DNA of 64,000 nucleotides, taken from NCBI GenBank assembly GCA_963664225.1, contig OY760937.1, forward strand, positions 4,128,001 through 4,192,000, given 5' to 3'. Source of the stretch: Verrucomicrobiia bacterium. GTDB taxonomy: Bacteria > Verrucomicrobiota > Verrucomicrobiia > Limisphaerales > UBA1319. Positions 4,410 through 53,339 of this stretch are shown one piece after another. The position numbers were made by a program, and so were the translations under genes. The notes below the pieces were generated by a model. The model had not been told where the DNA came from. It was given only the letters and a program-made list of their open reading frames with translations, and did no database searches. Positions within the stretch are counted from its first letter, which is position 1; the number at the start of each line of letters is the position of its first letter.

Positions 4410-4464
4410 ATGTTAAATCAGGGGTCATGGGATTGACCGAGGGTGGGGGGAGAGTGAAGTTGAC

Positions 4465-5985: not shown

Positions 5986-6022
5986 TTCGATTCGGCAGAT
6001 TTCCGATTTTCATTGACCCATT

Positions 6023-7426: not shown

Positions 7427-7524
7427 GCTCACTGAACCGGCGATGCATGGAGTTTGAAGAGCGCCCGAGAAGAATTTTTATGGGTTATACTGGAGTGTTA
7501 CTTTCATAGTCAGCGAGACCGGGT

Positions 7525-10133: not shown

Positions 10134-10232
10134 AGCATAGAATTTGATTTTAGGGACGCCGGGGTTCCGACGGCCTTAGAGAATGACCCAGCAACAAAAA
10201 CACATAACACGCCACTTGTGGCGCACTGAAGA

Positions 10233-11099: not shown

Positions 11100-11139
11100 A
11101 GAGGGCCGGCCTCCAAGAAACAAATTTGTTCTGGGTATA

Positions 11140-11174
11140 AACGCCAGGAGCGCTGTTCAAGCGCTCCTGGCGTT
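11140..11174. other. Perfect 15-bp stem-loop inside the dcw cluster (no U tract)
   Basis: AACGCCAGGAGCGCT-gttca-AGCGCTCCTGGCGTT. Confidence 0.7.
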
Positions 11175-11254
11175 GCCGCTTGTCAGACTTCCATGACCCC
11201 GGCTGGCGACTTTCAAGTTGACCGGCCATTCAAGAATCCTCTTCGACTACCTAT

Positions 11255-13518: not shown

Positions 13519-13530
13519 TCGGCGCAAAGG

Positions 13531-15877: not shown

Positions 15878-15885
15878 AAGAATTT

Positions 15886-16794: not shown

Positions 16795-16806
16795 TGTGAG
16801 GTGTAT

Positions 16807-17781
16807 ATGTTTTGGAAGAAAAAATCGAGAAACCGTCGCGGGCGGCGGGATGAGGTGCTCGATGTCAAAGTTTATTCGCAGAAGGCGCGCGCCGCGCGCT
16901 GGCGGATGGTGACGACGGCGCTGGGCGTTTCCCTTGGCACGTTGATCGGGCTGCTGCTGCTTTGGCGCGGCACCGAGTGGACCCTCAACGCGATGGTCTT
17001 CAAGAACGAGGCGCTGGCGGTGCAGCGGATCGAGGTCCAGACCGACGGGGTGATCGCGCCGGAACAAATCCGGCTGTGGGCGGGTGTGGCCAAGGGGGAC
17101 AATCTGGCGGGACTGGAGCTGGGGCGGATCCGGCGCAATCTGGAGCTGGCGCCGCTGATCAAGCACGCGTCGGTGGAACGGGTGATGCCCGATACTTTGA
17201 GACTGCGGGTGACCGAACGCGAGCCGATGGTTGAGGCGCATGTGCTGGCGCCCAAGGCCGACGACAGCGGTTATGACATTGTGTCCTATTACCTGGATGA
17301 CGAGGGGTATGTGATGCTGCCGCTGCAAAAGGGAATGCAAAGGCCGCTGGCGAGCGCCGCCTCGGATGCGCTTCCCATTTTGACCGGTTTGAATCGCTCG
17401 GACTTGCGTCCGGGCCGTCCGGTGGAATCGCCGCAGGTGATGGCGGCGCTGAGGTTGATCGAGGCGTTCGAGAATTCGCCCATGTTTGGCCTGGCGGACC
17501 TGGCGCGCATCGATTTGAGTTGGCCGGATGTCCTGCAGGTCACGACACAGTATGGGAGTGAGATCACGTTTTCCATGGATCGCCTGGAGACGCAATTGCT
17601 GCGGTGGCGTTCCATATACGATGTGGGTGCCCGGGCGGGCAAGGGCATTGCCAGCGTGGACCTTTCCGTTACGAACAACGTTCCGACCCTTTGGGTGGAG
17701 ACCGGCGCGGTCGCTCCAGAAAAACTCAAAGCAGTAAAAACCATCCGCCACAAGAAGAAAAATGTTCAGCTCCAGCAATAA
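16807..17781 (+). CDS. ftsQ: Cell division protein FtsQ/DivIB
   Basis: Basic N-terminus, one TM, POTRA-like region (VERVMPDTLRLRVTEREP); lies between ddl and ftsA. Confidence 0.88.
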   Translation: MFWKKKSRNRRGRRDEVLDVKVYSQKARAARWRMVTTALGVSLGTLIGLLLLWRGTEWTLNAMVFKNEALAVQRIEVQTDGVIAPEQIRLWAGVAKGDNLAGLELGRIRRNLELAPLIKHASVERVMPDTLRLRVTEREPMVEAHVLAPKADDSGYDIVSYYLDDEGYVMLPLQKGMQRPLASAASDALPILTGLNRSDLRPGRPVESPQVMAALRLIEAFENSPMFGLADLARIDLSWPDVLQVTTQYGSEITFSMDRLETQLLRWRSIYDVGARAGKGIASVDLSVTNNVPTLWVETGAVAPEKLKAVKTIRHKKKNVQLQQ

Positions 17782-18988
17782 CAACATCGTCGTCGGTCTG
17801 GAAGTGGGCACCGCCAAGATTTGCGCGGTGGCCGGCGAATATAACGAAAAAGGCGCCTTGACGGTCATTGGCGTGGGCCAGAGCGAATCCCGCGGCGTGC
17901 GCAAGGGGGAGGTCGTGGATACGGTGCTGGCGGAGGAGGACATTCGCGCGGCCATTGCCGAGGCCGAACGGAACGCCGACATTGAAATTCACAATGTGTT
18001 TCTGGGGGTCACCGGCAAACATGTGCGCGGATTCGGGAATCGCGGCGTGCATACCATCGTCAGCGCGGATCGGGAGATCACCGACGAGGATGTGCAGGAT
18101 GTAGTTGACAACGCCAAGGCGATCAACCTGCCCATGGGCCATCACGTTCTCCACGCGGTGCGGCAGCATTTTCTGCTGGATGGTCAGGATGGAATATTGA
18201 ACCCAGTGGGGATGTTGGGCACGCGGCTGGAGGTGGAGATGCATGTGATTCACGGGGTCACCAACCGGATTCAAAACGTGTTTCGCGTCGTCAAGGGTCT
18301 CCAGATCGAGGTGGAGAACATGGTTTTCAACGGGCTGGCCAGTTCCCTGGCGCTGCTTTCCCCGGAGGAAAAGGAGATGGGGACGGTGGTGATCGATTTG
18401 GGGGCGGGCACGACCGAATACGTGATGTCCGCCAACGGGATCATCAAGCATTCCGGGGTGCTGGGGGTGGGCGGGGATCATGTGACGAACGACCTGGCCA
18501 TCGGATTGAGAGTGCCGATCGTGCGGGCGGAGCAGTTGAAGATCAGTCACGGGCACGCGCTGCCGGACGAGAGTCTGCGGGGACAGACCTTTACGCCGAC
18601 CAGCGAGTCCGGCCTGCCGGAGCGGCCGGTCAAACTGGAGCATTTGCGGCGGATCATGGCCGCGCGGCTGGAGGAAACACTGGAGATCATCGAGGCGGAT
18701 TTATCCCGGGCGGGCCTGCTGGATTATGTGCGTTCGGGCGTGGTTCTGTGCGGCGGCGGGGCGCGCATTGCCGGCATTCAGCAACTGGCGGAGCGGATCT
18801 TCCAATTGCCGACCCGGATTGGAACCATACAAAACGTGGGCGGAATGAAATCTCTGCTGGAGCAGCCGGAATTTGCCACCTGCATCGGTCTGGTGCGTTT
18901 CGGGGCGATGCAGATGCAGCAAAAGGGGGCCGGACGCCCGCGCACGTGGGGATTTCGCCAGGCATTATCGGGTTTGCTGCGGCGCTAA
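17762..18988 (+). CDS. ftsA: Cell division protein FtsA
   Basis: GLEVGTAKI, GVRKGEV, IDLGAGTT, GGDHVTNDL, VLCGGGA. Confidence 0.96.
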   Translation: MFSSSNNNIVVGLEVGTAKICAVAGEYNEKGALTVIGVGQSESRGVRKGEVVDTVLAEEDIRAAIAEAERNADIEIHNVFLGVTGKHVRGFGNRGVHTIVSADREITDEDVQDVVDNAKAINLPMGHHVLHAVRQHFLLDGQDGILNPVGMLGTRLEVEMHVIHGVTNRIQNVFRVVKGLQIEVENMVFNGLASSLALLSPEEKEMGTVVIDLGAGTTEYVMSANGIIKHSGVLGVGGDHVTNDLAIGLRVPIVRAEQLKISHGHALPDESLRGQTFTPTSESGLPERPVKLEHLRRIMAARLEETLEIIEADLSRAGLLDYVRSGVVLCGGGARIAGIQQLAERIFQLPTRIGTIQNVGGMKSLLEQPEFATCIGLVRFGAMQMQQKGAGRPRTWGFRQALSGLLRR

Positions 18989-19016
18989 TGTTGAATAATA
19001 AAGCGAGTTGATTTTT

Positions 19017-20357
19017 ATGAATACCGATTACCAGGATCAAAAAGCCGAGGGCGGGTTGAAACCGACCCTGGATATCCGATTTTTCGGGGTGGGGCGGGCG
19101 GGATGCCGGATCGTGGAGCAGATTGGCGGGTTGGGGATTGCCCCGGGCTCATTTTATGTGGCTGACACGAACAGTCATGATCTGGCCGGGTATCGCAACG
19201 CCCGGCGGGTGTTGATCGGCGGGAAGATCATGCGCGGCCTGGGGGCGGGCGGCGACATGGAACTGGCCACAGCCGCCGCAGAAGCCGATGGCCCGGAATT
19301 ATCGGGCTTATTTACCGGAGCGGACATTGTGATATTGGTGGCGGGGCTGGGCGGCGGCACGGGGGGGGGCGCGGGACCGGTTCTGGCGCGGATGGCCAGG
19401 CAGACCGGCGCGTTGGTACTGGCGTTTGCGGTCATGCCCTTCGACTGCGAAGGCAAGAAACGTCAGCGTCAGGCGATGCAGGCCATGCGCCAATTGAAGG
19501 CCAGCGTGGATGGCACCATTGGCCTGCCCAATCAGCATTTGCTCAAGCTGACGCCTGAGGGAACGCCTTTGCAGGAGGTGCTCCAGACCGGCAACACCTG
19601 GATTCAAGAGGGAATCTGCGGGGTGTGGCGCATGCTGGCGCGGCCGGGATTGATCACGGTGGATTTTGCGGAGTTGAAGAATTGCCTGCGGGGACGGCAC
19701 TCGGAGGGGGCGCTGGCCTCGAGCAAGGCCGCCGGCGCGGATCGCGCGAAAACGGCGGCGGATATTCTGCTGGCCAGCCCGCTGCTGGGGGATGCGGAGA
19801 CTTTGCGCAAGGCGGACACGGTGCTTGTGAATATTGCGGGCAATACGCGCCTGGGTTTGCCCGAGGTGGACCAGGTGATCACCCGCGTCCGGCAGTGCTG
19901 TGATAATGCGAACGTGATTTTGGGGGCCACTTGCGACGACCAGCTCGGTGAGAATCTGGAGGTGACGTTGATTGCGACGACCCGCCAGACCGAGCCGGAT
20001 GCGGCATCCCAGTCGGAGGAGCGGGTGAATCCCCGTTTTGGAGCGTCCCGTTCCAACGAGGGGCAAGGACTGATGGGGCTGGAAATCAATCCGCTGGATG
20101 GAGTGTCGGCGGAGCGCCCGCGTCCCGGATTGGTGGCTCCGGCGCCTGATCTGAATGCGGAGCAGACCGGGAAATTGCTCAAGCAGCAGGCCCAGGAGGA
20201 CAGCCGGATTCGGAAGAACCTGCCGCAACTGCTGCAGGGTCAGTTGCCGCTGCAAATTGTTTCGAAGGGACGGTTCGAGAAAAGCGAGCCCACGGTGCAT
20301 CGCGGTGAAGATCTGGACAAGCCGACGTATATGCGGCGGAGCATCCTGCTGAATTAA
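19017..20357 (+). CDS. ftsZ: Cell division protein FtsZ (divergent motifs)
   Basis: GLGAGG, GLGGGTGGG, PFDCEG, VDFAEL, C-terminal DLDKPTYMRR; follows ftsA. Confidence 0.92.
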   Translation: MNTDYQDQKAEGGLKPTLDIRFFGVGRAGCRIVEQIGGLGIAPGSFYVADTNSHDLAGYRNARRVLIGGKIMRGLGAGGDMELATAAAEADGPELSGLFTGADIVILVAGLGGGTGGGAGPVLARMARQTGALVLAFAVMPFDCEGKKRQRQAMQAMRQLKASVDGTIGLPNQHLLKLTPEGTPLQEVLQTGNTWIQEGICGVWRMLARPGLITVDFAELKNCLRGRHSEGALASSKAAGADRAKTAADILLASPLLGDAETLRKADTVLVNIAGNTRLGLPEVDQVITRVRQCCDNANVILGATCDDQLGENLEVTLIATTRQTEPDAASQSEERVNPRFGASRSNEGQGLMGLEINPLDGVSAERPRPGLVAPAPDLNAEQTGKLLKQQAQEDSRIRKNLPQLLQGQLPLQIVSKGRFEKSEPTVHRGEDLDKPTYMRRSILLN

Positions 20358-24012: not shown

Positions 24013-24492
24013 TTAGCCGATCTTGATATCGACGGTTTTAGGTTTGGCTTTTTCGCTCTTGGCCACATGGACCTTGAGCATGCCATCCTTGAATTCGGCG
24101 CTGACCTTCGATTCGTCGGCATCCTCGGGCATGACGAAACTGCGGAGAAAACTTCCATAGGCCCGCTCGATGCGATGATAGCGTTTGCCTTTGTCCTCTT
24201 TCTCGAATTTGCGCTCGCCGCGCAGCATCAAGACGCCGTTCTCGAGGGTCACCGCCACATCCTCTTTCTGGACATCGGGCAACTCCGCCTTAATGGTGTA
24301 TTCCTTGTCGTCCTCGGCAATATCCACCAGTGGCGCCCACTCGGCCGCGCTGGCGTTCACGGCACCCTTTTCACCGGTCACCGGCATTCGTTCTACCGAG
24401 GGATTAAAAAGGGAGGCGAGACGGTTTTGCAGCAATTCCATTTCCTTGAAAGGATTCCACTTTCCAGTTTCGTTCTGTGTTAATGCGTTCAT
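24013..24492 (-). CDS. Small heat-shock protein (Hsp20/alpha-crystallin)
   Basis: WAPLVDI, KAELP, RIERAYGSFLRSF, AEFKDGML. Confidence 0.95.
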   Translation of the reverse strand: MNALTQNETGKWNPFKEMELLQNRLASLFNPSVERMPVTGEKGAVNASAAEWAPLVDIAEDDKEYTIKAELPDVQKEDVAVTLENGVLMLRGERKFEKEDKGKRYHRIERAYGSFLRSFVMPEDADESKVSAEFKDGMLKVHVAKSEKAKPKTVDIKIG

Positions 24493-24582
24493 AGTCTCAT
24501 TTCTTTCTGTGTTGATGCGTCGTCTTCCGCAACCCACGACTGACGGGCATCACGTTTTACATCGTTTAACGCCTCAGAAAGG

Positions 24583-40151: not shown

Positions 40152-42518
40152 TCACCGGACGATTAGCGCATCCACAGCCACCGGCCCGGGACCGCGATTG
40201 ACGATGTTAATGGCGTGTTTGCCTGACACCAGGCCGGTCACTTCGCACACTGCCTGCCGGGCCTGGCGCGCGCCGATAATGGACAAATCCACCGTTGCGC
40301 GCGTTTGGCCGTCAATCTGAATTTCGATTTTTCCGGCTCCGGGTTCTTTCGGGGCGATGACTGAGACACTGCTGCCGGTGAATGAACAGCTCCAAACCAC
40401 GCCGGGGGTGTCACTTGTCGTGATGTCATTGTTGAAGTCGCCGGCGCCCAGGTTGCAGCGGCGAAGCCAGCCGGGCGCCACTGCGCCTGGGTCATCGTCA
40501 TTGAGCCAGCCTTTGTCATGCGTGATGCGCAAGACGCGGCAGGCGGAAGCCAGCGATTGATTGGTGATGCCCGCCAGCGGCTGCGGCGTTCCGCCGGGCG
40601 CCACGGTCAAACCTTGATCATTTTGCACAAACGACAGCGGGACATCGGAACCGAGGAGTTCGACTTTCGACACTTGGCCCAATGTCGCCCCGCCGGCACG
40701 CAGGGCTTTGAGCGTGATCGGGCCGTTGGTCCAATTCATCAAGGCGGCATAGACGTTGCCGTTGTTGCGCGTGTAACAGATGGCATTGGCCTCTTCCTGA
40801 CAGACTTCAAATGGACGCGAACCATAGACCGCTTCGCCGTTGATTTTCAACCAGGCACCGATGTCTTTGGCAATTTGAATCACCTGTGGATCCAGATCGC
40901 CGCGGCCATGCTGGGTGAGGTTGAGCAAGAGCGTGCCGTTGCGCGAAACGTTCTGCATCAACAAACCGATTATTTTTTTCGCGTCCATGTATCGTTGCCC
41001 GGCCTTGTAGTGCCAGTCGGCGACGGTGGTTTCGGTCTGGAATGAATAGGGCATAATTTCCGGCTCGATGTCGGACTCGCTGCTCTTGACCAGGGCGCGT
41101 TCCACGAAGGGAATCAGTTCGGGGCTGTTTTTAAAGCTGTTGTAACGCCCACCGATGCACTTGAGGTTGATCACAACATCCAACTTCCCAGGCTTCCACT
41201 TCAAGGATTGGTTGTAGTAGTTTGCGACGAGCGGCGGAGCGAGAAAACCCAGCCCCATCTTGACACCCAAATCCAGCAGGGTGTCGCCCCCAGCCTCGTC
41301 AAAATAGATCGCGTCGGGATGATATTTGGAGATCGCGTCATCCACGCGCCACATAAATTGATTGGCGAAGGGCGAGAACAAGGGGTCCTTGTTGTTGTGA
41401 ACCGGCCCGTAAAGGTCCACCGGATCCATGCCCTCCCACCACGTGCCTTTTCCGTCGCGGATCGTTAGGAGCGCATCGTAGGGCACGCCTTTTTTTTGGC
41501 CTTTTTTGTCGCTGGTGTAACGCACCGGCATGAATTGGCCCCACGTCCGGGGCGGAGAGGCGTGAAAGCCGATGCCAAACCGGATTCCCTTCTGGCGCGC
41601 GGCCTTTTCCCATGTGCCGATGACATCCACCTTGGGGCCGACGCGGACGGAGTTCCAGGGTTGATAGGCTGAATCCCAGCAATCGAAGTTGTCGTGGTGA
41701 ACGCCCATCGCCATGAAATAACGGGCTCCCATTTCGGTGTAAAGGTTCATCAACTCGTTTGGATTCCAGCGGTCAATGACCCAGTTGTGGCAAATGTCCT
41801 TGTAACCGTATTCCGATGGATGGCCGAAGTTTTTGACGTGATAATTATACTGTGGATGGCCCTCCTGATACATGCCGCGCGAATACCAATCGCCATACTC
41901 GGGCATGGACTGCGGGTCCCAATGGGCCCACGCGCCAAACTTGGCCTCGCGCCACCACTCCGGCACGGTGTAACTCCGGCTGATCGCCTTCCAGTCGGGT
42001 GAATAAGGACCGGCGGCCACCGGCAAAGGCGGCAGGTTCCAAATATCCGGCGGCAACCCCAAATCTCCGTTGCCGACGATGATGCGATCAATGTTCACCG
42101 CGACATCGTTGGTCGCCAGACGGATGGTCAGCGTGGCCCTGGCGGGAATCGCCAGTTCAATGATTGCATTGAGAAAAGAATTGGTGAGAGCCCCGGAGGA
42201 ATGAACATTCACCTTGCGCGCCGGTTGGTCGTTGACTGCGACGCTGATCGTCCCCACCTCCACCGACGCATAGCGAATCGCCAATTTGCTGGCAGCCGGC
42301 AGGCGGGTGAACTTGAGGCCCTGGCCGGGTTTGCACAAACCGACCAAAGAAGCTCCGGAGGCTCCGAGGTCGGCCACCTTGGACGCCCCAGCGACACGTT
42401 TGGCGGCTTCCGCCTCGATCATGTGCTTGTCGGCAGCGACGGCAGAAACGGAAGCGGAAAGTAAAAATAAGGATGCAACAACAAGAAACCGCAGGTCATG
42501 GAACAATTTGCAGCGCAT
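40152..42518 (-). CDS. Secreted alpha-L-fucosidase (GH29) with accessory beta-sandwich domains
   Basis: PEWWREAKFGAWAHW, HHDNFDCWDS, YFD nucleophile motif, VSRNGTLLLN, WLKINGEAVYGSRP. Confidence 0.9.
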   Translation of the reverse strand: MRCKLFHDLRFLVVASLFLLSASVSAVAADKHMIEAEAAKRVAGASKVADLGASGASLVGLCKPGQGLKFTRLPAASKLAIRYASVEVGTISVAVNDQPARKVNVHSSGALTNSFLNAIIELAIPARATLTIRLATNDVAVNIDRIIVGNGDLGLPPDIWNLPPLPVAAGPYSPDWKAISRSYTVPEWWREAKFGAWAHWDPQSMPEYGDWYSRGMYQEGHPQYNYHVKNFGHPSEYGYKDICHNWVIDRWNPNELMNLYTEMGARYFMAMGVHHDNFDCWDSAYQPWNSVRVGPKVDVIGTWEKAARQKGIRFGIGFHASPPRTWGQFMPVRYTSDKKGQKKGVPYDALLTIRDGKGTWWEGMDPVDLYGPVHNNKDPLFSPFANQFMWRVDDAISKYHPDAIYFDEAGGDTLLDLGVKMGLGFLAPPLVANYYNQSLKWKPGKLDVVINLKCIGGRYNSFKNSPELIPFVERALVKSSESDIEPEIMPYSFQTETTVADWHYKAGQRYMDAKKIIGLLMQNVSRNGTLLLNLTQHGRGDLDPQVIQIAKDIGAWLKINGEAVYGSRPFEVCQEEANAICYTRNNGNVYAALMNWTNGPITLKALRAGGATLGQVSKVELLGSDVPLSFVQNDQGLTVAPGGTPQPLAGITNQSLASACRVLRITHDKGWLNDDDPGAVAPGWLRRCNLGAGDFNNDITTSDTPGVVWSCSFTGSSVSVIAPKEPGAGKIEIQIDGQTRATVDLSIIGARQARQAVCEVTGLVSGKHAINIVNRGPGPVAVDALIVR

Positions 42519-42670
42519 GAAGACATTTTGCCAATCGGGTGATCGGTTGTCAAAATTGATATTCCAGAGGCGCGAAAGCCGCAAAAAAGCAAAAAATCGC
42601 CGGATGGGTCAATACTTGCAGTAGGCAAACGGCATGGACCCCACCCTTACACTGGGACCAATCGAACCAA

Positions 42671-43567
42671 TCATTTCCCGCGGGACGAAATGGTTAATCC
42701 GCCGCCTGATGGGGCGTCGTTTTCGAGGCGTCGCAATAATTCCTGGACGATTTCCTGGAAGACAGGTCTTTTACGCATCACCTCGGGCGGTTCGTCCGGG
42801 CGGGGCACATCGAGAGTTTCCACCAGGCGACCCGGGTTGGCCGCCATGCGGAAGACGCGGTCGCCCAGATAGACGGCTTCCTCGACGGAATGGGTGACAA
42901 TGAAGACGGTGGATTCCTGCTCCTTCCAGAGTTGGACGAGCAGTTCCTGCATGTTGAGGCGGATCTTGGGGTCCAGCGCGCCGAAAGGTTCGTCCATCAA
43001 CAAAATCTTGGGGCCAAGAATGAGGGTGGCCGCAATGGAGACGCGCTGCTGCATTCCGCCGGAAAGCTCGGATGGATATTTGGATTCCGCGCCTTCGAGG
43101 CCGACCTTCTTCACCCATTCGTGGGCGCGATCCGTGCGTTCGCGGCGTCCCATGCCACGGAGCATCAGGCCGAAGGCAATGTTCTCCAGCACGGTGAGGT
43201 GGGGCATGAGCGAGTATTTCTGGTCCACCATTCCACGCTCGGAACTGGGGCTTACAATAGGTTTGCCAAATGCGATGATTTCGCCGGTTGTTTGCGGAAA
43301 ATGAGGTGTCAGGGCCGCGAGCATTCGCAGGAGGGTGGATTTCCCGCAGCCTGAAGGCCCGACGATGGCGATGAGTTCGCCGACATTGGGCAGGTCGTGA
43401 ATGACGAAGGAGATGTCCTGCAACGCAACTTTCGCCTGGTTGCCTTCGCCGAATTTCTTGGTCACGTTTTTGAATACGACCAATTCAGGCAGCCCGGTTT
43501 TAGACGACACAGCGGGATCTGTCGGGCCAGTTGAATCGGGCTTGGTTTCGGATGCGGGGGTGTCCAT
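42671..43567 (-). CDS. ABC ATPase, NitT/TauB family
   Basis: GPSGCGKST, LSGGMQQR, LLMDEPFGALD, VTHSVEEA. Confidence 0.93.
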   Translation of the reverse strand: MDTPASETKPDSTGPTDPAVSSKTGLPELVVFKNVTKKFGEGNQAKVALQDISFVIHDLPNVGELIAIVGPSGCGKSTLLRMLAALTPHFPQTTGEIIAFGKPIVSPSSERGMVDQKYSLMPHLTVLENIAFGLMLRGMGRRERTDRAHEWVKKVGLEGAESKYPSELSGGMQQRVSIAATLILGPKILLMDEPFGALDPKIRLNMQELLVQLWKEQESTVFIVTHSVEEAVYLGDRVFRMAANPGRLVETLDVPRPDEPPEVMRKRPVFQEIVQELLRRLENDAPSGGGLTISSRGK

Positions 43568-43572
43568 GCGGT

Positions 43573-44433
43573 TCAGTTGACGTAACGATAGGGGAACAGA
43601 ATCCGGCCGCCGAGCTTCCACAATTGGTCGCAGGCGACGGCGATGGCGACGATGACGATGATGATGGCAAACATGGAGGCCGTGTGGCCTCGGCGTTCGG
43701 AGATGGAGATGAGATAGCCCAGGCCTTGCTCGGCATTGACCACTTCAGCCAGGATGATCCAGCCCCAACCCACGCCGTACACCCCGCGCAAATGATCCCA
43801 GATATCCGCCTTGGCCACCGGAAACAAGACGTGGCGAACGATCTGCCATTGCGAGGCGCCCTTGGTCACGGCCACATCGATATAGGCGGACGGAACGTCC
43901 GTGATGGTCTTGATGACCAGGGGCAGGAGCGCGACAAAACAGCCGATGAACAGGAACCCAACCTTCTGGGTTTCGGTCAGCCCGAACCAAGCGAGAGTCA
44001 AAGGGACGAATACGACGATCGGCACATAGGAGCCAATGAGCGCGAGCGGACGGAAGAAGGCCGACATGGGAGGAAAGGTGGCCATGTAAACGCCCAATGG
44101 GACCGCAACGATGGCCGCCAGCGTGAAGCCCGTGGTCACGCGCATGAACGAGATCAAGGCGCTACGGACCAAAGCCTGCTCAAAGTGCAGCCGGGGAAAA
44201 GCCGCCAACACCTCGACCGGGCTGGGAAGAATGAGCGGCATGACGATCCGGTCCTCCATGCGCTCGCCACGCGTTACAAACCACCACGCCAGCATCATGA
44301 CTCCAACAAAGGCCGCTGTCAGGGCCAGGCCGCGCGTTTCGGGCAGCGTTTTGCGCACGTTCAGACCGCCGAAGCGCACCACGGCGGTCAGAAGTGTGAC
44401 AAAAACCACCGCAAAGATGAAAAACCCCGTCAT
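43573..44433 (-). CDS. ABC permease, NitT/TauC family, with extra N-terminal TM
   Basis: ILPSPVEV, SFMRVTTGF, EAA-like YIDVAVTKGAS, IILAEVV, GLGYLI. Confidence 0.92.
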   Translation of the reverse strand: MTGFFIFAVVFVTLLTAVVRFGGLNVRKTLPETRGLALTAAFVGVMMLAWWFVTRGERMEDRIVMPLILPSPVEVLAAFPRLHFEQALVRSALISFMRVTTGFTLAAIVAVPLGVYMATFPPMSAFFRPLALIGSYVPIVVFVPLTLAWFGLTETQKVGFLFIGCFVALLPLVIKTITDVPSAYIDVAVTKGASQWQIVRHVLFPVAKADIWDHLRGVYGVGWGWIILAEVVNAEQGLGYLISISERRGHTASMFAIIIVIVAIAVACDQLWKLGGRILFPYRYVN

Positions 44434-46202
44434 TATTCTTTCTCCAAGGGGAAGACTTTGACTTCAACACGGCGGTTTTTGCGGTTGTGATCCACATTGC
44501 TGGGATCGGTCATGCCCGGTAGCGGATTATCCCAACCATTGCCGATGACCTTGAATTTATTCGGGTCGAATTTGTATTTGGCGATGATGGCTTTCCGCAC
44601 GGAATCCGCGCGATCATAGGAGAGTTGACGCACGAGGTCGGCGGGAACCACGCCCTTGCGGCTGGCGTCGGTGTTGCCTTCGACCACAACGTAGGCGTTG
44701 CCGAACGAACCGGCCATCTTGCTGATTTCCTCCAGGGTGGCGGGAATCGTGGCATCATACTCCGCATTGAGCGTCGATTTGTTTGGCTCGAAGGAAATGA
44801 TGACGGCCTTGGTCAGGATTTCGCTGGAATCGGCTTCCGCCGTCTTGAACAAGGCGCCCGGCTTGAAGGTTGGCTGTGAGAGATCGCGAGTCTCCTTGTA
44901 TTCCTCGGACATTTTGGCCAGAACGCCCGCCGCCTTGACCTTCGCCGCTTGAGCCGGGACGTCGATTGCGCCGAGGGATTTGTAGATCGTCGAAGCCCGG
45001 TTCCAGACCACTTCGAAATTGGCCGGGTTCATCGGGTCCAGGAAGAAATTGGAATTCTCCCGGTAATTGGCCAGATGGGCGTCGCCTTCGCTGATACCGC
45101 CGTCCTTGCCGATCATGTTCTGGCAATCCTCGACGGGCAGTTTATAGGCGGCGGACAGGATGCGGGCTGCGCCTGGAACGTCTTTGCGGACCATGTCCAT
45201 GCCTTCGAAAATACCGCGCACCAGGTTGGCCGCGATATCAGGGTGATCCCGGTAGAAATCGTTGCGCAAGGCCCAGACGTCCGCGATCAAATGATTGGCC
45301 GCCGCAGTGCTGACCACGAGGCGGGTTCCGGTTACCTGCTCGGACACGGTGTAAATGTCCGGGGACCAACCAACAAAGGCGTCAAACGAGGTGTCCTGAA
45401 CAAAGATTTTTGCCGCAGCCGGAGCGTCCCCCGCCCATTTGAAATCGACCTGCGCGGGATCGATCCCCGCGTCGATGAGTAGGGACATGATCAGGTAATG
45501 GCTGGGTGAGTTTTGAGCCAGAACCACTTTGCGGCGCTTGCCATCCTTCATGCGAAAATCGTTGATGCTCCGAATATCGCCACGGGCCACAATACCGTCA
45601 CCACCAGACGACCAGTCCACCTGCTGGCAAATGACGGGGACGGTGCGGGAGTCCTTGACCAGTTCGGGCGCGAAGAGGGCCATCATATCGAGTGTGCCCC
45701 AGAGGACATGGCTGTGACCGCTGGCGAAGAGGTCACGGGCCTTGACCGGATCATCGACCAGCGAAAGCTTCACGTAGAAGCCATATTTCTTGAAAAAGAT
45801 GCTTCCTTCGTTGGGCTCCATACCGTTGTTGGCGACGATGATCGGCGCCCAACCCGGCCAGACGTTGATTGGAAATTGAACGATGAGTTTGCCATCTTTC
45901 ATCGGCTTGTCGTAATCGCTGACGCCGCTGACCGATGGAATGGCGGAACCATCGACCAGGGAGACCGCCTTGTCGCCGGCCAGCAACTTGCTGGTGACGT
46001 CGGTGGCGGGTTTGGCCGGCTGCCCGGCTGAGGGCGCGCCTGTCGGTTTGTTGGCGTCCAGGGCCTGTTTAATTGCCGCCGTGTCGAGGGACGGATTGGA
46101 GGATTTGCCGGTGGGGGCGATTTTATCCCACCAACGATAGGTGCCGAATCCGGCCACAGCCAGGATCAACAGCGTTAATACGATTTTTCCGCGAGCAGTC
46201 AT
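44433..46202 (-). CDS. Membrane-anchored NMT1/SsuA-type substrate-binding protein fused to a C-terminal OmpA-like peptidoglycan-binding domain
   Basis: N-terminal TM; WPGWAP, DWSSGGDGIV, WSPD; C-terminal ISFEPNKS, VEGNTD, LSYDRA, GNGWDNP, NRRVEV. Confidence 0.87.
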   Translation of the reverse strand: MTARGKIVLTLLILAVAGFGTYRWWDKIAPTGKSSNPSLDTAAIKQALDANKPTGAPSAGQPAKPATDVTSKLLAGDKAVSLVDGSAIPSVSGVSDYDKPMKDGKLIVQFPINVWPGWAPIIVANNGMEPNEGSIFFKKYGFYVKLSLVDDPVKARDLFASGHSHVLWGTLDMMALFAPELVKDSRTVPVICQQVDWSSGGDGIVARGDIRSINDFRMKDGKRRKVVLAQNSPSHYLIMSLLIDAGIDPAQVDFKWAGDAPAAAKIFVQDTSFDAFVGWSPDIYTVSEQVTGTRLVVSTAAANHLIADVWALRNDFYRDHPDIAANLVRGIFEGMDMVRKDVPGAARILSAAYKLPVEDCQNMIGKDGGISEGDAHLANYRENSNFFLDPMNPANFEVVWNRASTIYKSLGAIDVPAQAAKVKAAGVLAKMSEEYKETRDLSQPTFKPGALFKTAEADSSEILTKAVIISFEPNKSTLNAEYDATIPATLEEISKMAGSFGNAYVVVEGNTDASRKGVVPADLVRQLSYDRADSVRKAIIAKYKFDPNKFKVIGNGWDNPLPGMTDPSNVDHNRKNRRVEVKVFPLEKE

Positions 46203-46265
46203 AATTCTAGTCCTTTCAAGTACGGCTTCAAGGGTTCTGGGATCAACGGCGCAAAAGGGTCTGGC

Positions 46266-47027
46266 TCATTTCTCGGCGATTTTCTGGCGATCCTCCTTGG
46301 GAGGCGCGGCAACAGCCGGGGCGGCATCGGCCTGAACCATGCCCATCTTTTTCTTGTATTCCTGGAACAACATCGCGCCCCGGGCCTTGCGCATGTCCTG
46401 CTGGCGTTGGACGTTGGAGCCCATTTCCTTGGCCAGGTCCAGCGTCGCGCGCATCTGGCCTTCACCCGCCGCTGCGGATTGCCTGAGCTGCTGCATGGAT
46501 TGGCCCAATTCGCCACCCATCATGCCCTGCAATTCCGTGATGGAGCCCTTCATCAGGCTGGCCAGGTTTTCGAGCGAACGGCCCACAGCCACGCGGACTT
46601 TGACCTGCTCGAAATCGCGCTGGAATTTCTGAATTTCGCGCAAACTCTGGGCGATGATCTGGGTGTTCTGCTGGTAAAGCTCTTCAAGGCTGTTGAGCTG
46701 GGACTTGTTGTCTTCCAAGTCCTTCTCCACATCGGAGAGTTGCTCGGCGTAATGCGCACCGTTGGCATCGTCATTGGCCGCCGCCGCCGCCTGGACCAGA
46801 CCCTGCAAGTCCTCACGTCCTCGCTCCTGGCGTTTGACCTGGTCCTTGAGCAGGGCGATCTGGCCGGCCAGTTGGCCATTGGCGTAATGGGCCTTGTCGG
46901 CCTTGGCCTTGGCATCGCGAATGCCCCGTTCCACCACGGCCTGATTGATCGCGTCGGTTTCGGTGGCTTTTTCGGCAGCCAGCCCCATCCAGATGAACAG
47001 CCGTTTGATGGCTCTAAAGATACCCAT
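46266..47027 (-). CDS. PspA/IM30 (bacterial ESCRT-III)-like coiled-coil protein
   Basis: Amphipathic N-terminus MGIFRAIKRLF, ERGIRD, long helical hairpin with AAAAANDDANG turn, terminal helix LFQEYKKKMG; 253 aa. Confidence 0.72.
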   Translation of the reverse strand: MGIFRAIKRLFIWMGLAAEKATETDAINQAVVERGIRDAKAKADKAHYANGQLAGQIALLKDQVKRQERGREDLQGLVQAAAAANDDANGAHYAEQLSDVEKDLEDNKSQLNSLEELYQQNTQIIAQSLREIQKFQRDFEQVKVRVAVGRSLENLASLMKGSITELQGMMGGELGQSMQQLRQSAAAGEGQMRATLDLAKEMGSNVQRQQDMRKARGAMLFQEYKKKMGMVQADAAPAVAAPPKEDRQKIAEK

Positions 47028-47039
47028 ATTCGTCGATTG

Positions 47040-47795
47040 TTAGTTGGTTGTTGATTTTGCGGGGGCCGCTTTGGCCGGAGGTTCCTCCTCTTCGAGTAGA
47101 ATCTTCTTTTCGAAAATGTAGGTCAACTGCGATTCAAGCTGGGTTGCATTGGAGGCGCTGACCACAGTGGCCCCCTGTTTCTTAAGGGGATTAAACACGG
47201 CGGCGTCCACGTCAAAAGCGATGACATGGGTCTGAAACGCGGTATTGGCGCTTTCTGCGGCGGTTTTAAGTTTGGGCAGCACGGCATCGGGACTTGGTCC
47301 GGTGGTATTCATGCCATCGGTGACAATGAGGACATGTTTGTGCGTCAGCGGTGATCGAATGAGGGTTTGTGCGGCCAGGCTTAGGGAATTGCCCAGGGGG
47401 GTATTGCCATCGGGACCTTTGTACTGGGTGATCCAATCGCGAAATGGCTGCGGATTGAATGGGCCAAAGGGGACCGCAAATTTGGGAGTTCCTTGATTGA
47501 AGACAATCAGGCCGGCGTTAACTTTTCGAGGGGCGCCTTCAGAAGCCGCTTTCTGGTAGGCCTCCAACCGGTTCAGGATTTTACCCAGCGCCCGATTGGC
47601 GATGATGTACTTTGGAGCTGCCTGGCCATTTTGGTCCCGGACAGTTTCACGCATGCTTCCAGAGGTATCGCAAACGATGACCAGGGAAACACCTTCCTGC
47701 GGGGCGGGCTGGTCGGCGGCAAAGGAGGCCATTGCGCATGTCAAGCCTAGCAATGCGGCTAAAAGCGCTCCCGGCCTTGAGTTGGTTGGATTCAT
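47040..47795 (-). CDS. Exported von Willebrand factor A (vWA) domain protein
   Basis: Signal peptide; MIDAS DTSGS, GNTPL, VTDG. Confidence 0.88.
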   Translation of the reverse strand: MNPTNSRPGALLAALLGLTCAMASFAADQPAPQEGVSLVIVCDTSGSMRETVRDQNGQAAPKYIIANRALGKILNRLEAYQKAASEGAPRKVNAGLIVFNQGTPKFAVPFGPFNPQPFRDWITQYKGPDGNTPLGNSLSLAAQTLIRSPLTHKHVLIVTDGMNTTGPSPDAVLPKLKTAAESANTAFQTHVIAFDVDAAVFNPLKKQGATVVSASNATQLESQLTYIFEKKILLEEEEPPAKAAPAKSTTN

Positions 47796-47821
47796 ATCTT
47801 AGCTTGTGCAAGACTAACCAT

Positions 47822-47851
47822 AGTTTAGCAGTTTAAAACCTTCACTGTCAA
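47822..47851 (-). promoter_or_regulatory. sigma70-type promoter of the vWA-PspA-ABC operon
   Basis: TTGACA-N18-TAAACT with extended -10 TGn, -10 box ending 26 nt upstream of the ATG. Confidence 0.65.
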
Positions 47852-48239: not shown

Positions 48240-48758
48240 ATGGATATAACATTCAACTGCCCCAATTGCAAACAAGAGATGTTGGTGGACGCCGAGGACG
48301 TGGGACGCGAGGTGGAGTGTCCATCCTGCGGGGCGAGTATCACCATTCCCGGAGAGGAAGCTGCGGAAGCACGGCCAGCGGCCGAGGCTCCAGTAGAGCA
48401 GCAGCCTTCAGCCGTGCATCCCGTCAATGCAATGGCCTCTTCTGCCGCAGCCAAGGAATCCAAGCATTATGCGGTGCCAGCGCATGATGCGCCGACCGAG
48501 GTGCTCATCAGCAAGCCGAATAAGCCGCTGGAAGTCGCGGCCAAAGAGACGGATAAGAAATTAAGAATCCGGACCATCCGGCGCACGGATTGCGTGGAAG
48601 TAGGGAAGGATCTGTTCGATCAAAGGGTCTCTGACTTTCTGCAACAAGTGGGTGAGACCAATGTGGTCAGCATCAATTCCATTGCCTATACCCACGTGGA
48701 TTTGGGATCCCATCAGTTAATGACGGATTTCGGCGTCATGATTGTTTTTAAGGGGTAA
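48240..48758 (+). CDS. Zn-ribbon domain hypothetical protein
   Basis: CPNC...CPSC at the N-terminus, linker, small C-terminal domain. Confidence 0.8.
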   Translation: MDITFNCPNCKQEMLVDAEDVGREVECPSCGASITIPGEEAAEARPAAEAPVEQQPSAVHPVNAMASSAAAKESKHYAVPAHDAPTEVLISKPNKPLEVAAKETDKKLRIRTIRRTDCVEVGKDLFDQRVSDFLQQVGETNVVSINSIAYTHVDLGSHQLMTDFGVMIVFKG

Positions 48759-49709: not shown

Positions 49710-49981
49710 GGGCTGATCAGGCAGGCATTGCAGAGACAACAAAGGCGGTTTCGATGATTTGCGGGTCCATTGTTGTGCACGGTCCCGTTAGTCTTGAAGC
49801 GGTATGAGACTTTTAATGGCTGCCAATCCGGAGCGTTAATTTCCACTTCAATCATGGTTTCACGTTCCATGAGGCGTCGCTTTCCCAGAGATCGATCCAC
49901 TCTGAGCCAATGGAGTCCGTCGCATATTTTCGACGCCAATACTTGCCGTCCGGCCATGCGACGTGTCAACATGGGTCTGAA

Positions 49982-51154
49982 GTGCGGGAAACATTGCGAG
50001 CATGGAATGAAGCATTGGAAACGTTTGTTCTGGCGGTCATTTTCGACCAGCGCCGGGGCAAACGGGCGGCGCTTGTGCGTGTGCTTCTGCTGGTCCTCTC
50101 GAATGTCTTCGCGGTGGCGGTCAAGGCGCGCCGATTCCTTTACAACATGCGAATTTTGAGGGATTCCACGCTGGGCGTGCAGGTCATCGCCATTGGCAAC
50201 CTCACGGTGGGCGGGACGGGTAAGACACCTGTGGTGGAAAAATTCGCGCGAGAATTGCAGGACCAGGGCCGCACTGTGGCCATTTTATCCCGTGGCTATC
50301 GCTCCAAGCCGCCGCCCTTTACGAAACGTCTGATCAATAAACTGTTGTTGCGGGAGGACATCACACCGCCGCGCATTGTGTCGGACGGTAAATCGCTTTT
50401 GCTGGATTCCGAAACCGCCGGGGATGAGCCCTACATGCTGGCCTCGAACCTGAAGGACGTGGTGGTGCTGGTGGACAAGGACCGCGTCAAGAGCGGACGT
50501 TATGCCATCGAAAAATACGGATGCGACACCCTTCTGCTCGACGATGGTTTCCAGTATTGGAAGCTGCGCGGGCGTCGTCGGGATATTGTTCTGATCGATT
50601 GCCAGCAGCCTTTCGGCAACGAGTTCCTGCTTCCTCGCGGCACACTGCGGGAGCCGCCTTCCCACCTGGCCCGGGCGAGCACCATTTTCATCACCAAGAG
50701 CACTGGGGACACCACGGAGTTGCGCAAGCGCATCGAGGCCTTGAATTCCACAGCCAAGATCATCGAGTGCATCCATCACCCGCTCTATTTTGAGGACCTG
50801 TTCACTGGCCAGCGCCATGGCATGGAATTTCTCAAAGGCCGCAGGGTCGCCTCTCTGAGCGGCATTGCGCAGCCGGAAAGTTTTGAGGAAAGCCTCATTA
50901 AATTCGGGGCCGAGCTGGTGTATTCGAAACGGTTTGCCGATCACCATCGTTTCAGTCAGCAGGAGGTGTTGAATGTGATCAACCGCAGTAAAAAGCGCCA
51001 GGCTGAAGTCATCATCACCACCCAGAAGGATGCGGTGCGTTTTCCGAAGATCGACCGCCGGGACCTGCCCATTTATTTCATGCGTGTGGAAATCAAGATC
51101 ATCAGCGGCGCGAGCAATTTCCAGGATTGCGTGCGCCAAATCTGCTTTCGATAG
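49982..51154 (+). CDS. lpxK: Tetraacyldisaccharide 4'-kinase
   Basis: [43 protein letters not shown]. Confidence 0.96.
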
Positions 51155-51156
51155 AC

Positions 51157-52086
51157 ATGTCATACCTCGTTTATTTATTGGTGCGCGCGCTGCTGTGGCT
51201 TTTGCGATTGCTGCCTTTGCGGGCCATCGCACGCGTGGGGCGGGCGGGTGGCGCGCTGGCCTATGCGTTGGATCGCAGGCATCGGCGCGTGGCGGTGGAT
51301 AACCTGACGCAATGCTTTGGGGATTCGAAAACGCAGGAGGAAATCAAGGCGCTGGCGCGCGAAAACTTCAAGCGCATCGGCGAGAATTTTGCCGCAGCCG
51401 TGAAAACCTCCTCGATGAACGAGGCGGCCATTCGTGAATGCGTGGAACTGGTGGGCGCGGAGCACGTTTTGCCTGCCGCGAATGAAGGGCAGGCCAAAGG
51501 CAGGATCATCGCCATCGGCCACTTTGGAAATTTCGAACTCTACGCCCGGTGCAATTATTTTGTTCCCGGTTTGCAGTTTGCCACCACGTATCGCGGGATC
51601 AACCAGCCGTTGTTGAACCGCATTCTGCAGGACCTGCGCAATCAATCCGGCTGCCTCTATTTCGAGCGCCGCAGCGAGGGGGGCGCGTTGAGGCATGCCC
51701 TGCAAAATCAGGGTGTCATGCTCGGCCTGCTGGTGGACCAACACGCCGGAGATCACGGATTGCGCGTGCCGTTTTTTGGCCGGGATTGTTCGACCAGTCC
51801 TGCCCCCGGCATCTATGCCCAGCGCTATCACCTGCCGCTGCATGTTGCCATTTGCTATCGGGTCGGCCTGGGCCGCTGGCGTATTGAAATGGGCGAGGAG
51901 ATACCGACATTCGAGGCGGGCGAGCCGCGTTCGTCCGAAGCTGTGGCCGCAGATATCAACAAGGCCTATGAAGCCGCGATTCGTCGCGATCCGGCCAATT
52001 GGTTTTGGGTGCATCGTCGCTGGAAGGCGACGCACTATCGCGCGAAATCCACCGCGTCGGAAACCGCCCATCCCACGCCGGGTTGA
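51157..52086 (+). CDS. lpxL: Lipid A late acyltransferase (LpxL/HtrB family)
   Basis: GHFGNFE, LLVDQ, VPFFG, PANWFWVHRRWK. Confidence 0.88.
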   Translation: MSYLVYLLVRALLWLLRLLPLRAIARVGRAGGALAYALDRRHRRVAVDNLTQCFGDSKTQEEIKALARENFKRIGENFAAAVKTSSMNEAAIRECVELVGAEHVLPAANEGQAKGRIIAIGHFGNFELYARCNYFVPGLQFATTYRGINQPLLNRILQDLRNQSGCLYFERRSEGGALRHALQNQGVMLGLLVDQHAGDHGLRVPFFGRDCSTSPAPGIYAQRYHLPLHVAICYRVGLGRWRIEMGEEIPTFEAGEPRSSEAVAADINKAYEAAIRRDPANWFWVHRRWKATHYRAKSTASETAHPTPG

Positions 52087-52094
52087 AATGTGTC

Positions 52095-53339
52095 ATGGAG
52101 GCAATTCGCATGGCGCAATCCGATTCACCTTCACAATTCCGCGGATCCGGTAGCCCGGCAGATCAAAGGGCGAACCTCCAGGCTTTTGTTTTGCTAATGC
52201 CCGCCAATGGTCGCGGCGTGCGCCTGGTCGTGCGCGGCGTGAACTGGCTGGGGGACGCCATCATGACCACGCCCGCGTTGCTCCGCCTGCGTGAGTTGCT
52301 GCCCGAGGCGCACACCACCCTCTGCGGTCCCGACAAGCTGGCCGGGTTATGGCTGAACCATCCCGCGATCGATTCCGTGATGTCCATCGCGCATGACGAT
52401 GGCTTGCTGAAAGTAGCCGCAACGTTGCGCGCTGGCGGATTCACGCATGCGTTGATTCTGCCCAATTCGCCGCGCTCGGCATTGGAATCGTGGATGGGTG
52501 ATATTCCCTGCCGCATTGGATATGCCCGGTTTTGGCGCAACGCCTTTCTGACGCACAAGGTTTTCGACCGACAGGGTATTGTGCGCATGCAAAAAAAATC
52601 CCTGGCGCAAATCCAACGGTGCTGCGACGAACCTCTGCGTCAGGCGCCTGCAAGTTCGATTCCGCCCGAGGCGCATCATATTTATCATTATCTGCATCTC
52701 GTTGGTGCGATGGGTGCCAATTCCGCGCCGCTGCCTCCCCGATTGTATGTCACGGAACAGGAGCGTGCCGCCTTGTGCCAGCGGTTTCAGCTCGATCCCG
52801 CGCGCCTCTGGTGCGGGTTGAATCCCGGCGCCGAATACGGTCCCGCCAAGCGGTGGCCCATCGAGCGGTTTGCGAAGGCGGCCATCGAGGTGCAAAAACG
52901 CACCGGTTGCGGCTGGCTGATTTTTGGCGGAAAAGCGGATGTGGAGTCTGGACGTGCTCTGGCGGAAAAAATCCGTGGGCAGGCTGGGTCGAATAGCGCC
53001 AGCCCGGTGGTTTGTCTGGCGGGGGAAACCAATTTGCGTGAACTCTGCGCCGGGTTGGCCGTTTGCCGTGTGCTGCTTACCAACGATACCGGTCCCATGC
53101 ACCTGGCGGCGGCGGTGGGAACGCCCGTGGTTGCGATTTTCGGAAGCACCTCCCCTGAACTGACCGGCCCTGGGCTTCCGGGGTCCGGGCAGCATGTCCT
53201 CTTGCGCTCCAACGCCCCGTGTTCGCCGTGTTACCTGCGGGAGTGTCCGATAGATTTTCGCTGCATGACGGGCATCAGCGCGGAGGATGCGGTTCACGCA
53301 GTCCTCGGCACCTTGTCGGAAAGAAACAACGGCGGATAG
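52095..53339 (+). CDS. waaF: LPS heptosyltransferase II (GT9; start uncertain)
   Basis: NWLGDAIM, NPGAEYGPAKRWP, TNDTGPMHLAAA, IFGST, CSPC. Confidence 0.9.
   Translation: MEAIRMAQSDSPSQFRGSGSPADQRANLQAFVLLMPANGRGVRLVVRGVNWLGDAIMTTPALLRLRELLPEAHTTLCGPDKLAGLWLNHPAIDSVMSIAHDDGLLKVAATLRAGGFTHALILPNSPRSALESWMGDIPCRIGYARFWRNAFLTHKVFDRQGIVRMQKKSLAQIQRCCDEPLRQAPASSIPPEAHHIYHYLHLVGAMGANSAPLPPRLYVTEQERAALCQRFQLDPARLWCGLNPGAEYGPAKRWPIERFAKAAIEVQKRTGCGWLIFGGKADVESGRALAEKIRGQAGSNSASPVVCLAGETNLRELCAGLAVCRVLLTNDTGPMHLAAAVGTPVVAIFGSTSPELTGPGLPGSGQHVLLRSNAPCSPCYLRECPIDFRCMTGISAEDAVHAVLGTLSERNNGG

Follow-up and report, generated by a model that had tools for sequence, protein, structure and literature searches.

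Why does a PspA-like gene stand between a gene for a von Willebrand factor A (vWA) protein and the genes of a Tau-type ATP-binding cassette (ABC) transporter? We address this question for five genes on the reverse strand of a 64,000-nucleotide stretch of a Verrucomicrobiia bacterium (Limisphaerales, UBA1319; GenBank assembly GCA_963664225.1, contig OY760937.1, positions 4,128,001 to 4,192,000), called the window here, which encode in order the vWA protein, the PspA-like protein, a fusion of a substrate-binding protein with an OmpA-like domain (SBP-OmpA), and the ABC permease and ATPase. In bacteria, the ESCRT-III superfamily is represented by the PspA/Vipp1 proteins. The original prediction, made by a model from the sequence, saw in the five genes a dedicated trans-envelope machine and not an ordinary nutrient importer, with the ABC core as the element that would signal to or recruit the PspA-like polymer. 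Comparing the locus with 80 relatives, we find that the cluster is real, conserved and not an ordinary importer operon. The constant pair in the relatives is the PspA-like gene and the gene of the membrane-anchored SBP-OmpA protein; the ABC genes, the vWA gene and two further genes, which we call C8 and C9, are optional members. We hold with moderate confidence the combined reading that the window operon is a local copy of a Verrucomicrobiota-wide PspA/IM30 envelope module in which SBP-OmpA is the membrane partner; the specific mechanism, with SBP-OmpA as anchor and sensor, is a more tentative proposal.

The cluster has the following features (coordinates of the window).

47851..47822, reverse strand: promoter-like site TTGACA-18-TAAACT, with TG before the second hexamer and 10 of 12 consensus matches
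47795..47040, reverse strand: vWA gene, 251 amino acids (aa)
47027..46266, reverse strand: PspA-like gene, 253 aa
46202..44433, reverse strand: SBP-OmpA gene, 589 aa
44433..43573, reverse strand: ABC permease gene, 286 aa, its start overlapping the SBP-OmpA stop by 1 nucleotide (nt)
43567..42671, reverse strand: ABC ATPase gene, 298 aa from the ATG at 43567

As predicted, the five genes are co-oriented and separated, from vWA to ATPase, by 12, 63, −1 and 5 nt. The longest open reading frame (ORF) of the ATPase begins at a GTG at 43621 and has 316 aa.

Gene order in related loci

A genome scan seeded with an alignment of eight PspA-like sequences returned 174 relatives, and the best 80 of these (L001-L080; 75-87% identity to the PspA-like protein), each from a different assembly as judged by accession prefix, were compared. 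Neighbouring ORFs were clustered, the conserved neighbours were each turned into a hidden Markov model (HMM), and the 80 loci and the window were searched with these models. Of the 68 loci that have at least 2.5 kb downstream, 66 have the SBP-OmpA gene as the immediate next gene after the PspA-like one, the exceptions being L017 and L072. The SBP-OmpA protein comes in two types: type A, 70-85% identical to that of the window, is found in 43 loci, and type B, only 25-31% identical to it but of the same architecture, in 33. Type B proteins carry the transmembrane (TM) helix and the SBP-like and OmpA parts of type A (NMT1, E 4e-4; OmpA, E 2.8e-11). In the remaining four loci no SBP-OmpA gene was found, and two of these end 551-959 nt past the PspA-like gene. 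The pairing with the PspA-like gene holds for both types, and it is SBP-OmpA, and not the ABC core, that is the invariant partner.

The distribution of the other genes follows the SBP-OmpA type. Type A loci have the permease in 33/33 cases and the ATPase in 32/33, the one exception, L003, having a gap of 100 N. Type B loci lack the permease altogether (0/21) and keep the PspA-like gene, so that the predicted role of the ABC core as the link to the PspA-like protein is not general. The vWA gene is present in 52 of the 73 loci with at least 1 kb upstream, namely in at least 36/41 of type A (a lower bound, as L003 has a tblastn match) and in 15/28 of type B.

The conservation stops at the borders of the cluster. 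Three genes that flank it in the window, encoding a zinc-ribbon protein, orf306 and LpxK, are each found in 0/80 loci, and the window's fucosidase gene is found in one (1/80), there elsewhere in the locus and on the other strand; the flanks also differ among the 80 loci themselves. Since the gene order recurs while the flanks vary, conservation among these 80 Verrucomicrobiota loci is confined to the cluster and exceeds what chance would give.

In a quick tree of 81 PspA-like proteins, the architecture labels cluster, needing 16 changes compared with 34.1 in shuffles (0/200 as low). The window's own architecture type needs 12 changes on this tree, 2 of them forced by well-supported branches, and no order of events can be claimed. 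Eight of the operon contigs carry the labels Haliangiales, Bifidobacterium sp., Akkermansia muciniphila, Lentisphaerae or Planctomycetota (L036, L041, L045, L058, L073, L077, L033 and L002); their PspA-like proteins are 77-84% identical to that of the window. These labels probably reflect loose or wrong taxonomy of metagenome-assembled genomes and not a true spread of the operon.

The five proteins of the operon

Judging from profiles and a structural model, the 253-aa protein is a true homologue of PspA/IM30 in the ESCRT-III superfamily, though divergent. An exhaustive phmmer search of 1.84 billion cluster representatives gave 115 matches at E≤1e-3, 82 at ≤1e-10 and 34 at ≤1e-30, many of them fragments. 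Full-length relatives range from 56% down to 34% identity and are followed by tail proteins at 20-28%, 8 of 13 of which pass the cut-off of the Pfam family PspA_IM30 (PF04012) with 40-151 bits. Among 11 closer full-length family members, one passes that cut-off (P0251, 34.4 bits), six match below it and four give no match. An hhalign comparison of a 17-sequence family profile with eight bona fide PspA_IM30 proteins gave a probability of 99.8% (E 5.2e-29, 228 columns), the eight having been drawn from the tail of the matches to the query itself, a choice that may bias the comparison towards similarity and to that extent tells against the assignment. Further, PspA_IM30 is carried by 28 of the 30 nearest Atlas clusters of the protein, and its N-terminus, MGIFRAIKRLF, resembles the start of the consensus of bona fide PspA proteins in the alignment.

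The AlphaFold2 (AF2) model (pLDDT 70.5) has helices at residues 3-22, 25-83, 87-169 and 175-227 and shows the elements of the PspA/IM30 fold, that is, an N-terminal helix, the long α1/α2-3 hairpin, α4 and α5. In a Foldseek search of the PDB with this model, ranks 1-6 are Vipp1 (best E 2.5e-3), PspA 7abk is also listed, and PspA 4whe aligns with TMt 0.79 and a root-mean-square deviation of 1.4 over 116 columns. The 253-aa protein therefore does model as a PspA/ESCRT-III protein, as had been predicted, by AF2, Foldseek and hhalign alike. Its architecture consists of a hydrophobic or amphipathic N-terminal helix, a long helical hairpin, a variable linker rich in Pro, Ala and Thr, and a conserved C-terminal peptide, DRQKIAEK (window 46266-46295). 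The family pattern of this peptide, (E/D)(R/K)Q(K/R)(I/V), is kept in the alignment down to 34% identical members, and the strict motif is found in 60/80 loci and the window and in all architecture classes.

The SBP-OmpA protein begins with the six residues MTARGK, followed by one TM helix, a low-complexity linker, a binding domain at about residues 100-440 and an OmpA-like domain at 471-583. Both parts of the predicted fusion are recognizable. The C-terminal part matches Pfam OmpA (6.3e-10) and, as a profile, Omp38 in the PDB (3td3, 3.4e-11). The binding part weakly matches three NCBIfam models, each below its cut-off: TIGR03427 (4e-12; 45.9 against a cut-off of 333.9), SsuA_fam (1.5e-8) and TauA. 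In Foldseek searches with the AF2 model (pLDDT 68.4), the binding domain matches TauA (6ssy, 5.9e-12), SsuA (3uif, 4.1e-11; 2x26) and CmpA/NrtA, and the OmpA-like domain matches 3td5, a complex with a peptidoglycan peptide (TMt 0.80, 29% identity). By domain match and fold, the OmpA-like domain is thus predicted to bind peptidoglycan.

An alignment of nine type A and ten type B SBP-OmpA proteins, which are about 30% identical overall, shows where the two types agree. Seven positions between residues 2 and 24 are invariant across both (T2, G5, K6, T10, L14, G20 and W24), and this N-terminal anchor is the most conserved stretch that the types share; in two loci, tblastn matched only the N-terminus and TM stretch of SBP-OmpA. 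The N-terminus and TM helix thus appear to be conserved beyond the need of a passive anchor, and we infer that they form a contact surface, the simplest partner being the PspA-like protein because it is the one partner that is always present. Co-folding of the PspA-like protein with residues 1-60 of SBP-OmpA scored 0.00 against a mark of 0.32, in a run made without controls, which counts neither way.

Permease and ATPase look like a working type I ABC importer. The permease matches Pfam BPD_transp_1 (2e-17) and, below the cut-offs, NCBIfam SaoP (2.4e-30) and TauC (1.3e-25); the ATPase matches Pfam ABC_tran (1.4e-30) and NCBIfam TauB (8.7e-62; 208.9 against a cut-off of 357). Walker A, signature and Walker B motifs of the ATPase and an EAA-like loop of the permease can be read in the translations, so that a permease with such a loop, an intact nucleotide-binding domain and a class II SBP of TauA/SsuA fold, as expected of a NitT/TauT-type type I importer, are all there. 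The Tau-type core that had been predicted next to the SBP-OmpA fusion is therefore real.

These canonical parts, with TauC and TauB as the nearest families and a TauA/SsuA fold in the binding domain, speak for another explanation of the locus: an ordinary nutrient importer of the sulfonate, taurine, nitrate or bicarbonate class, with a wall-tethered SBP, next to independent PspA and vWA genes whose adjacency reflects descent within one order. The comparison set lends this explanation something too, as all 80 loci are Verrucomicrobiota-like and their PspA-like proteins are close to one another. However, the adjacency of the PspA-like and SBP-OmpA genes survives both the swap of SBP-OmpA for a 25-31% identical paralogue and the loss of permease and ATPase (0/21), the flanking genes are not conserved, and the N-terminal anchor of SBP-OmpA is conserved far beyond what a passive anchor would need. 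Moreover, section 18 of the survey by Ravi, Anantharaman, Aravind, Gennaro et al. (mSystems 2024, PMC11237479) records the same association in other lineages. We therefore regard an ordinary importer as distinctly improbable.

The vWA protein (Pfam VWA_2, 1.2e-10; VWA, 1.6e-7) was predicted to be exported and to carry a metal ion-dependent adhesion site (MIDAS), and both features are in place. An N-terminal signal peptide can be read from the sequence, and the MIDAS residues D43-x-S45-x-S47, T132 and D160 are each at least 95% conserved in a 53-sequence alignment. The same level of conservation (at least 95%) is reached in these 53 sequences by a C-terminal KILLE at residues 231-235 (window 47091-47105). 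A search of PDB sequences with the vWA protein gave no match at E≤0.01. KILLE and the DRQKIAEK peptide of the PspA-like protein, both of which follow variable linkers, look like short docking motifs.

C8, C9 and the proposed mechanism

In most genomes the module is larger than five genes, and the window holds an incomplete copy that lacks the AAA+ partner. Among type A loci with at least 4 kb beyond the ATPase gene, C8 is present in 29/29 and C9 in 27/29 (L004 and L075 being without C9); among type B loci, both are present in 13/21 and both absent in 8/21. The five-gene composition first described for the window thus holds as far as the conserved order is concerned, but it is not the full or fixed set, as vWA is optional (52/73) and relatives add C8 and C9. 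The two genes lie downstream of the ATPase gene or of the type B SBP-OmpA gene, for example at L015:14340-17137 and L062:12487-15284.

C8, of about 320 aa, combines a pair of TM helices at its N-terminus with a long coiled coil and matches no Pfam (E≤0.1) or NCBIfam family. As a relative of PspA or Snf7 it was rejected at the sequence level, with hhalign probabilities of 1.0% and 0.5%. Its nearest named Atlas neighbours are clusters of the Rv2743c/PspM family (score 0.86), which we note as a lead only. C9, of about 600 aa, has a PF00004 AAA domain at about residues 335-470 (1.2e-19) with the Walker A motif GRVGVGKS; its best PDB match is a VCP-like ATPase (5e-25), and the NCBIfam models CDC48 (5.6e-17) and CdvC (8.6e-8) match below their cut-offs. 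By these matches, C9 is classed as a classical AAA protein of the Cdc48/VCP D2 type. Pfam gives no MIT-domain match in C9.

Some of the related loci contain an insertion that encodes C25, a small multi-TM protein. Tandem pairs of type B SBP-OmpA genes occur at L007:2032-5449, L024:10756-14097 and L045:4995-8918 and in L042, all in loci without permease, ATPase, C8 and C9; in L045 and L042 the two genes of the pair are separated by C25.

The near-constant presence of C8 and C9 in comparable type A loci (29/29 and 27/29) raises an alternative in which these two are the decisive components: an ATP-driven, ESCRT-III/Vps4-like machine, of which the window would hold a decayed or split copy with its partners encoded elsewhere. 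The classical AAA domain of C9 suits this alternative, as does the C-terminal peptide that the PspA-like protein carries after a variable linker in 60/80 loci and the window, in the manner of the ESCRT-III tails that recruit Vps4, and ATP-dependent remodelling is also what Ravi et al. propose in the section cited (PMC11237479). Yet neither gene is found in the 64-kb window and 8/21 type B loci do without them as well, C9 has no MIT-domain match in Pfam, and C8 has no profile similarity to PspA (1%, 0.5%). We consider this alternative rather unlikely.

In the reading that we prefer, SBP-OmpA would be the membrane partner of the PspA-like protein, with a role like that of PspBC, LiaI or PspM. 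Its N-terminus and TM helix would mark a site at the inner membrane, and its periplasmic part, pinned to the wall by the OmpA-like domain, would report a ligand or the state of the envelope; in type A loci, the same binding domain may also feed the linked importer. The PspA-like protein would bind the cytoplasmic face of the membrane through its N-terminal helix, polymerise, and stabilise or reshape the membrane. The vWA protein could act as a periplasmic accessory whose partner is bound through the MIDAS site, and in the loci that have them, C8 and C9 presumably serve to anchor the PspA-like polymer and to remodel it; for the window, they may be encoded outside the 64 kb or be dispensable. 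The original idea of a trans-envelope machine is a plausible hypothesis. A further-reaching version, which we think unlikely, would make the whole an ATP-driven remodelling machine of Verrucomicrobiota analogous to ESCRT-III/Vps4: a PspA-like polymer, a two-TM coiled-coil anchor and a Cdc48-like AAA+ protein, coupled to the wall, would be gated from the periplasm by the peptidoglycan-tethered SBP, with the vWA/MIDAS protein as accessory and the ABC importer as one of two interchangeable output or input modules.

Several observations weigh against the module reading, and they concern the sampling, the missing genes and the assignments. (i) The 80 loci come from one phylum (Verrucomicrobiota), 94 weaker relatives having been left out, and since their PspA-like proteins are 75-87% identical, part of the synteny among them is simple descent. 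The loci were found with a PspA-like query, and the occurrence of the SBP-OmpA/ABC trio is accordingly counted from the PspA side alone. (ii) Homologues of C8 and C9 are absent from the 64-kb window (tblastn, E≤1e-3; HMM, E≤1e-5), although they accompany all or nearly all comparable loci, and their joint absence from 8/21 type B loci means that they are not essential neighbours. (iii) The PspA-like protein matches PspA_IM30 below threshold (E 3.1e-4; 20.8 bits against a cut-off of 33.9), no Foldseek match of its model reaches E 1e-3 and other coiled coils (YscO, SMC) are interspersed among the matches, and the family profile finds CdvB best among PDB sequences (E 0.029), with no PspA or Vipp1 chain up to E 10. 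(iv) Every NCBIfam match of the importer lies far below the cut-off, none giving an equivalog-level substrate assignment, and so its substrate cannot be named. (v) The cytoplasmic part of SBP-OmpA has only about six residues, and the partnership of SBP-OmpA with the PspA-like protein is a proposal drawn from gene order and conservation.

Setting of the window copy and comparison with known systems

The near-consensus σ70 promoter that had been described in front of the operon exists as a site, with 10 of 12 consensus matches, and ends 26 nt upstream of the vWA ATG. The 6.1-kb region contains six comparable sites, compared with 2.4 ± 1.6 in shuffles, which makes a single match weak evidence. 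In 19/54 related loci, 14 of them with the exact TTGACA, the 200 nt upstream of the vWA gene include a promoter-like site, a count made without a shuffle control. Between the PspA-like and SBP-OmpA genes, the 63-nt gap gives no support for a hairpin or attenuator (z-score −0.34), and the imperfect hairpin with U-runs after the ATPase gene (z-score −0.08) was not called as a terminator by the scanner.

The operon lies in the core chromosome of a soil or freshwater Verrucomicrobiota bacterium, by its homologues of the Pedosphaera/Limisphaerales type, in a window with the dcw cluster of cell-wall and division genes, lipid A genes and ribosomal protein genes. The near-complete dcw cluster (2421-20357, forward strand) encodes a penicillin-binding protein transpeptidase, MurE, MurF, MraY, MurD, a LysM protein, MurG, MurC, MurB, Ddl, FtsQ, FtsA and FtsZ, and a 376-aa ORF at 11255-12385 occupies the position expected for ftsW. 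Genes for LpxK, a lipid A acyltransferase and a family 9 heptosyltransferase (49910-53339, forward strand) lie just upstream of the operon region. These lipid A and lipopolysaccharide core genes form an envelope-related context, and their adjacency to the operon is not conserved in relatives. An Hsp20 gene (24013-24537, reverse strand) is farther away. Across a 444-nt spacer, the operon faces a divergent gene for a 172-aa protein (48240-48758, forward strand) with an N-terminal zinc ribbon and weak DUF7560 and Zn_ribbon matches; as it has no counterpart in the 80 related loci, it is not part of the module. On the other side, 86 nt past the ATPase gene, begins the gene of an exported 810-aa α-L-fucosidase of glycoside hydrolase family 29 with a C-terminal CE2_N-like domain (40152-42584, reverse strand), which sits where relatives have C8 and C9. 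It has a promoter-like site of its own (TTGACA-17-CAAAAT, 42553-42525), and its likely start is an internal ATG after this site.

This setting bears on the proposal that the genes serve an anti-phage or toxin response, with damage to the envelope as the trigger of the PspA-like polymer. PspA systems are known to respond to phage secretins and envelope damage (reviewed in PMC7619361), and one of the PspA/IM30 neighbour clusters in the Atlas has Uroviricota as its commonest known taxon. However, the locus stands among cell-wall, division and lipid A genes of the core chromosome and not in a defence island. PADLOC, run on eight proteins, found no system-specific component: the ABC ATPase and the AAA protein drew generic P-loop matches alone, and the other six (vWA, PspA-like, SBP-OmpA, permease, C8 and C25) drew none. 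In addition, 50,697 phage records gave no tblastn match. Nothing thus points to the phage response that had been suggested, which we judge most improbable.

The question on which this locus family bears is how, beyond a handful of model systems, PspA/Vipp1 polymers are directed to their sites and recycled. For this question it offers a natural test case, with a conserved PspA-like protein (75-87% across 80 loci), a constant partner that crosses the inner membrane and binds the wall and, in the majority of genomes, an AAA+ protein. The window copy is not the best experimental entry point, because it is an incomplete example without the AAA+ partner. Were the ATP-driven machine real, the Planctomycetes-Verrucomicrobia-Chlamydiae group, with its unusual membrane organisation, would have a dedicated remodelling system, and the current view that PspA polymers have no Vps4-like regulator in bacteria would be contradicted; the 2025 review PMC7619361 describes a Vps4-like ATPase as apparently absent in bacteria.

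How, then, does the locus compare with systems already described? With the NitT/TauT importers TauABC, SsuABC and NrtABC it shares the permease and ATPase families and the TauA/SsuA/CmpA binding fold. In contrast to these, the binding protein of the window is anchored by a TM helix of its own and ends in an OmpA-like domain, and the PspA-like and vWA partners are foreign to nutrient importers. With the Psp and Lia systems—PspFABC of E. coli, LiaIH of B. subtilis and PspA-PspM/Rv2743c of M. tuberculosis—it shares a PspA/IM30 gene beside the gene of a possible membrane anchor. Here, however, the SBP-OmpA protein, as the candidate anchor, is large and periplasmic and leaves a stub of about six residues in the cytoplasm, and no Pfam family of PspB, PspC, PspF, LiaI/F or Toastrack is found in the operon and its nearest neighbours (eight proteins) or in 47 further ORFs of the window, several small ORFs having no Pfam match of any kind. 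The absence of the classical PspBC/PspF and LiaIFSR partners, noted from the start, is therefore upheld by the Pfam scans of the window.

The parallels with the ESCRT-III and Vps4 proteins of archaea and eukaryotes are the superfamily fold of the PspA-like protein, its C-terminal peptide after a flexible linker and, in relatives, a classical AAA ATPase encoded nearby. Unlike Vps4 and CdvC, the ATPase of the relatives is nearest to Cdc48/VCP D2 (CdvC matching with 8.6e-8) and shows no MIT domain in Pfam, and it is absent from the 64-kb window. The words ABC, OmpA and Verrucomicrobia have 0 occurrences each in the accessible text of the review PMC7619361, and among open-access and bioRxiv papers, judged by their titles and the beginnings of their abstracts, we found none that characterises the system.

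The closest precedent comes from the survey of Ravi et al., and the caveat of the original prediction that comparative surveys may already list such a system has proved right. Section 18 of that survey (PMC11237479) describes a gene neighbourhood of PspA that includes a PBPb-OmpA protein, a permease and two ATPases, one of the ABC and one of the double-AAA+ kind; it states that PspA of bacteria is occasionally accompanied by a protein that has two AAA+ domains, the N-terminal copy being inactive, and that such operons suggest a link of ATP-dependent membrane remodelling with solute transport. By this section, the PspA/AAA+/ABC/PBPb-OmpA arrangement is already catalogued and functionally uncharacterised. 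The window operon resembles this neighbourhood in its PspA homologue, SBP-OmpA protein, permease and ABC ATPase, and the relatives resemble it in C9, an AAA+ protein of some 600 aa in which Pfam places the AAA domain within the C-terminal half. The window differs from it in that its 64 kb contain neither a protein with two AAA+ domains nor a two-TM coiled-coil protein. The terms "vWA" and "von Willebrand" have 0 occurrences in the main text of the survey, whose supplement may list vWA or the ABC-less form. Beyond that main text, our comparison adds the existence of two SBP-OmpA types, the ABC-less form of the operon, the invariance of SBP-OmpA as neighbour of the PspA-like gene, its conserved anchor and the frequent vWA gene.

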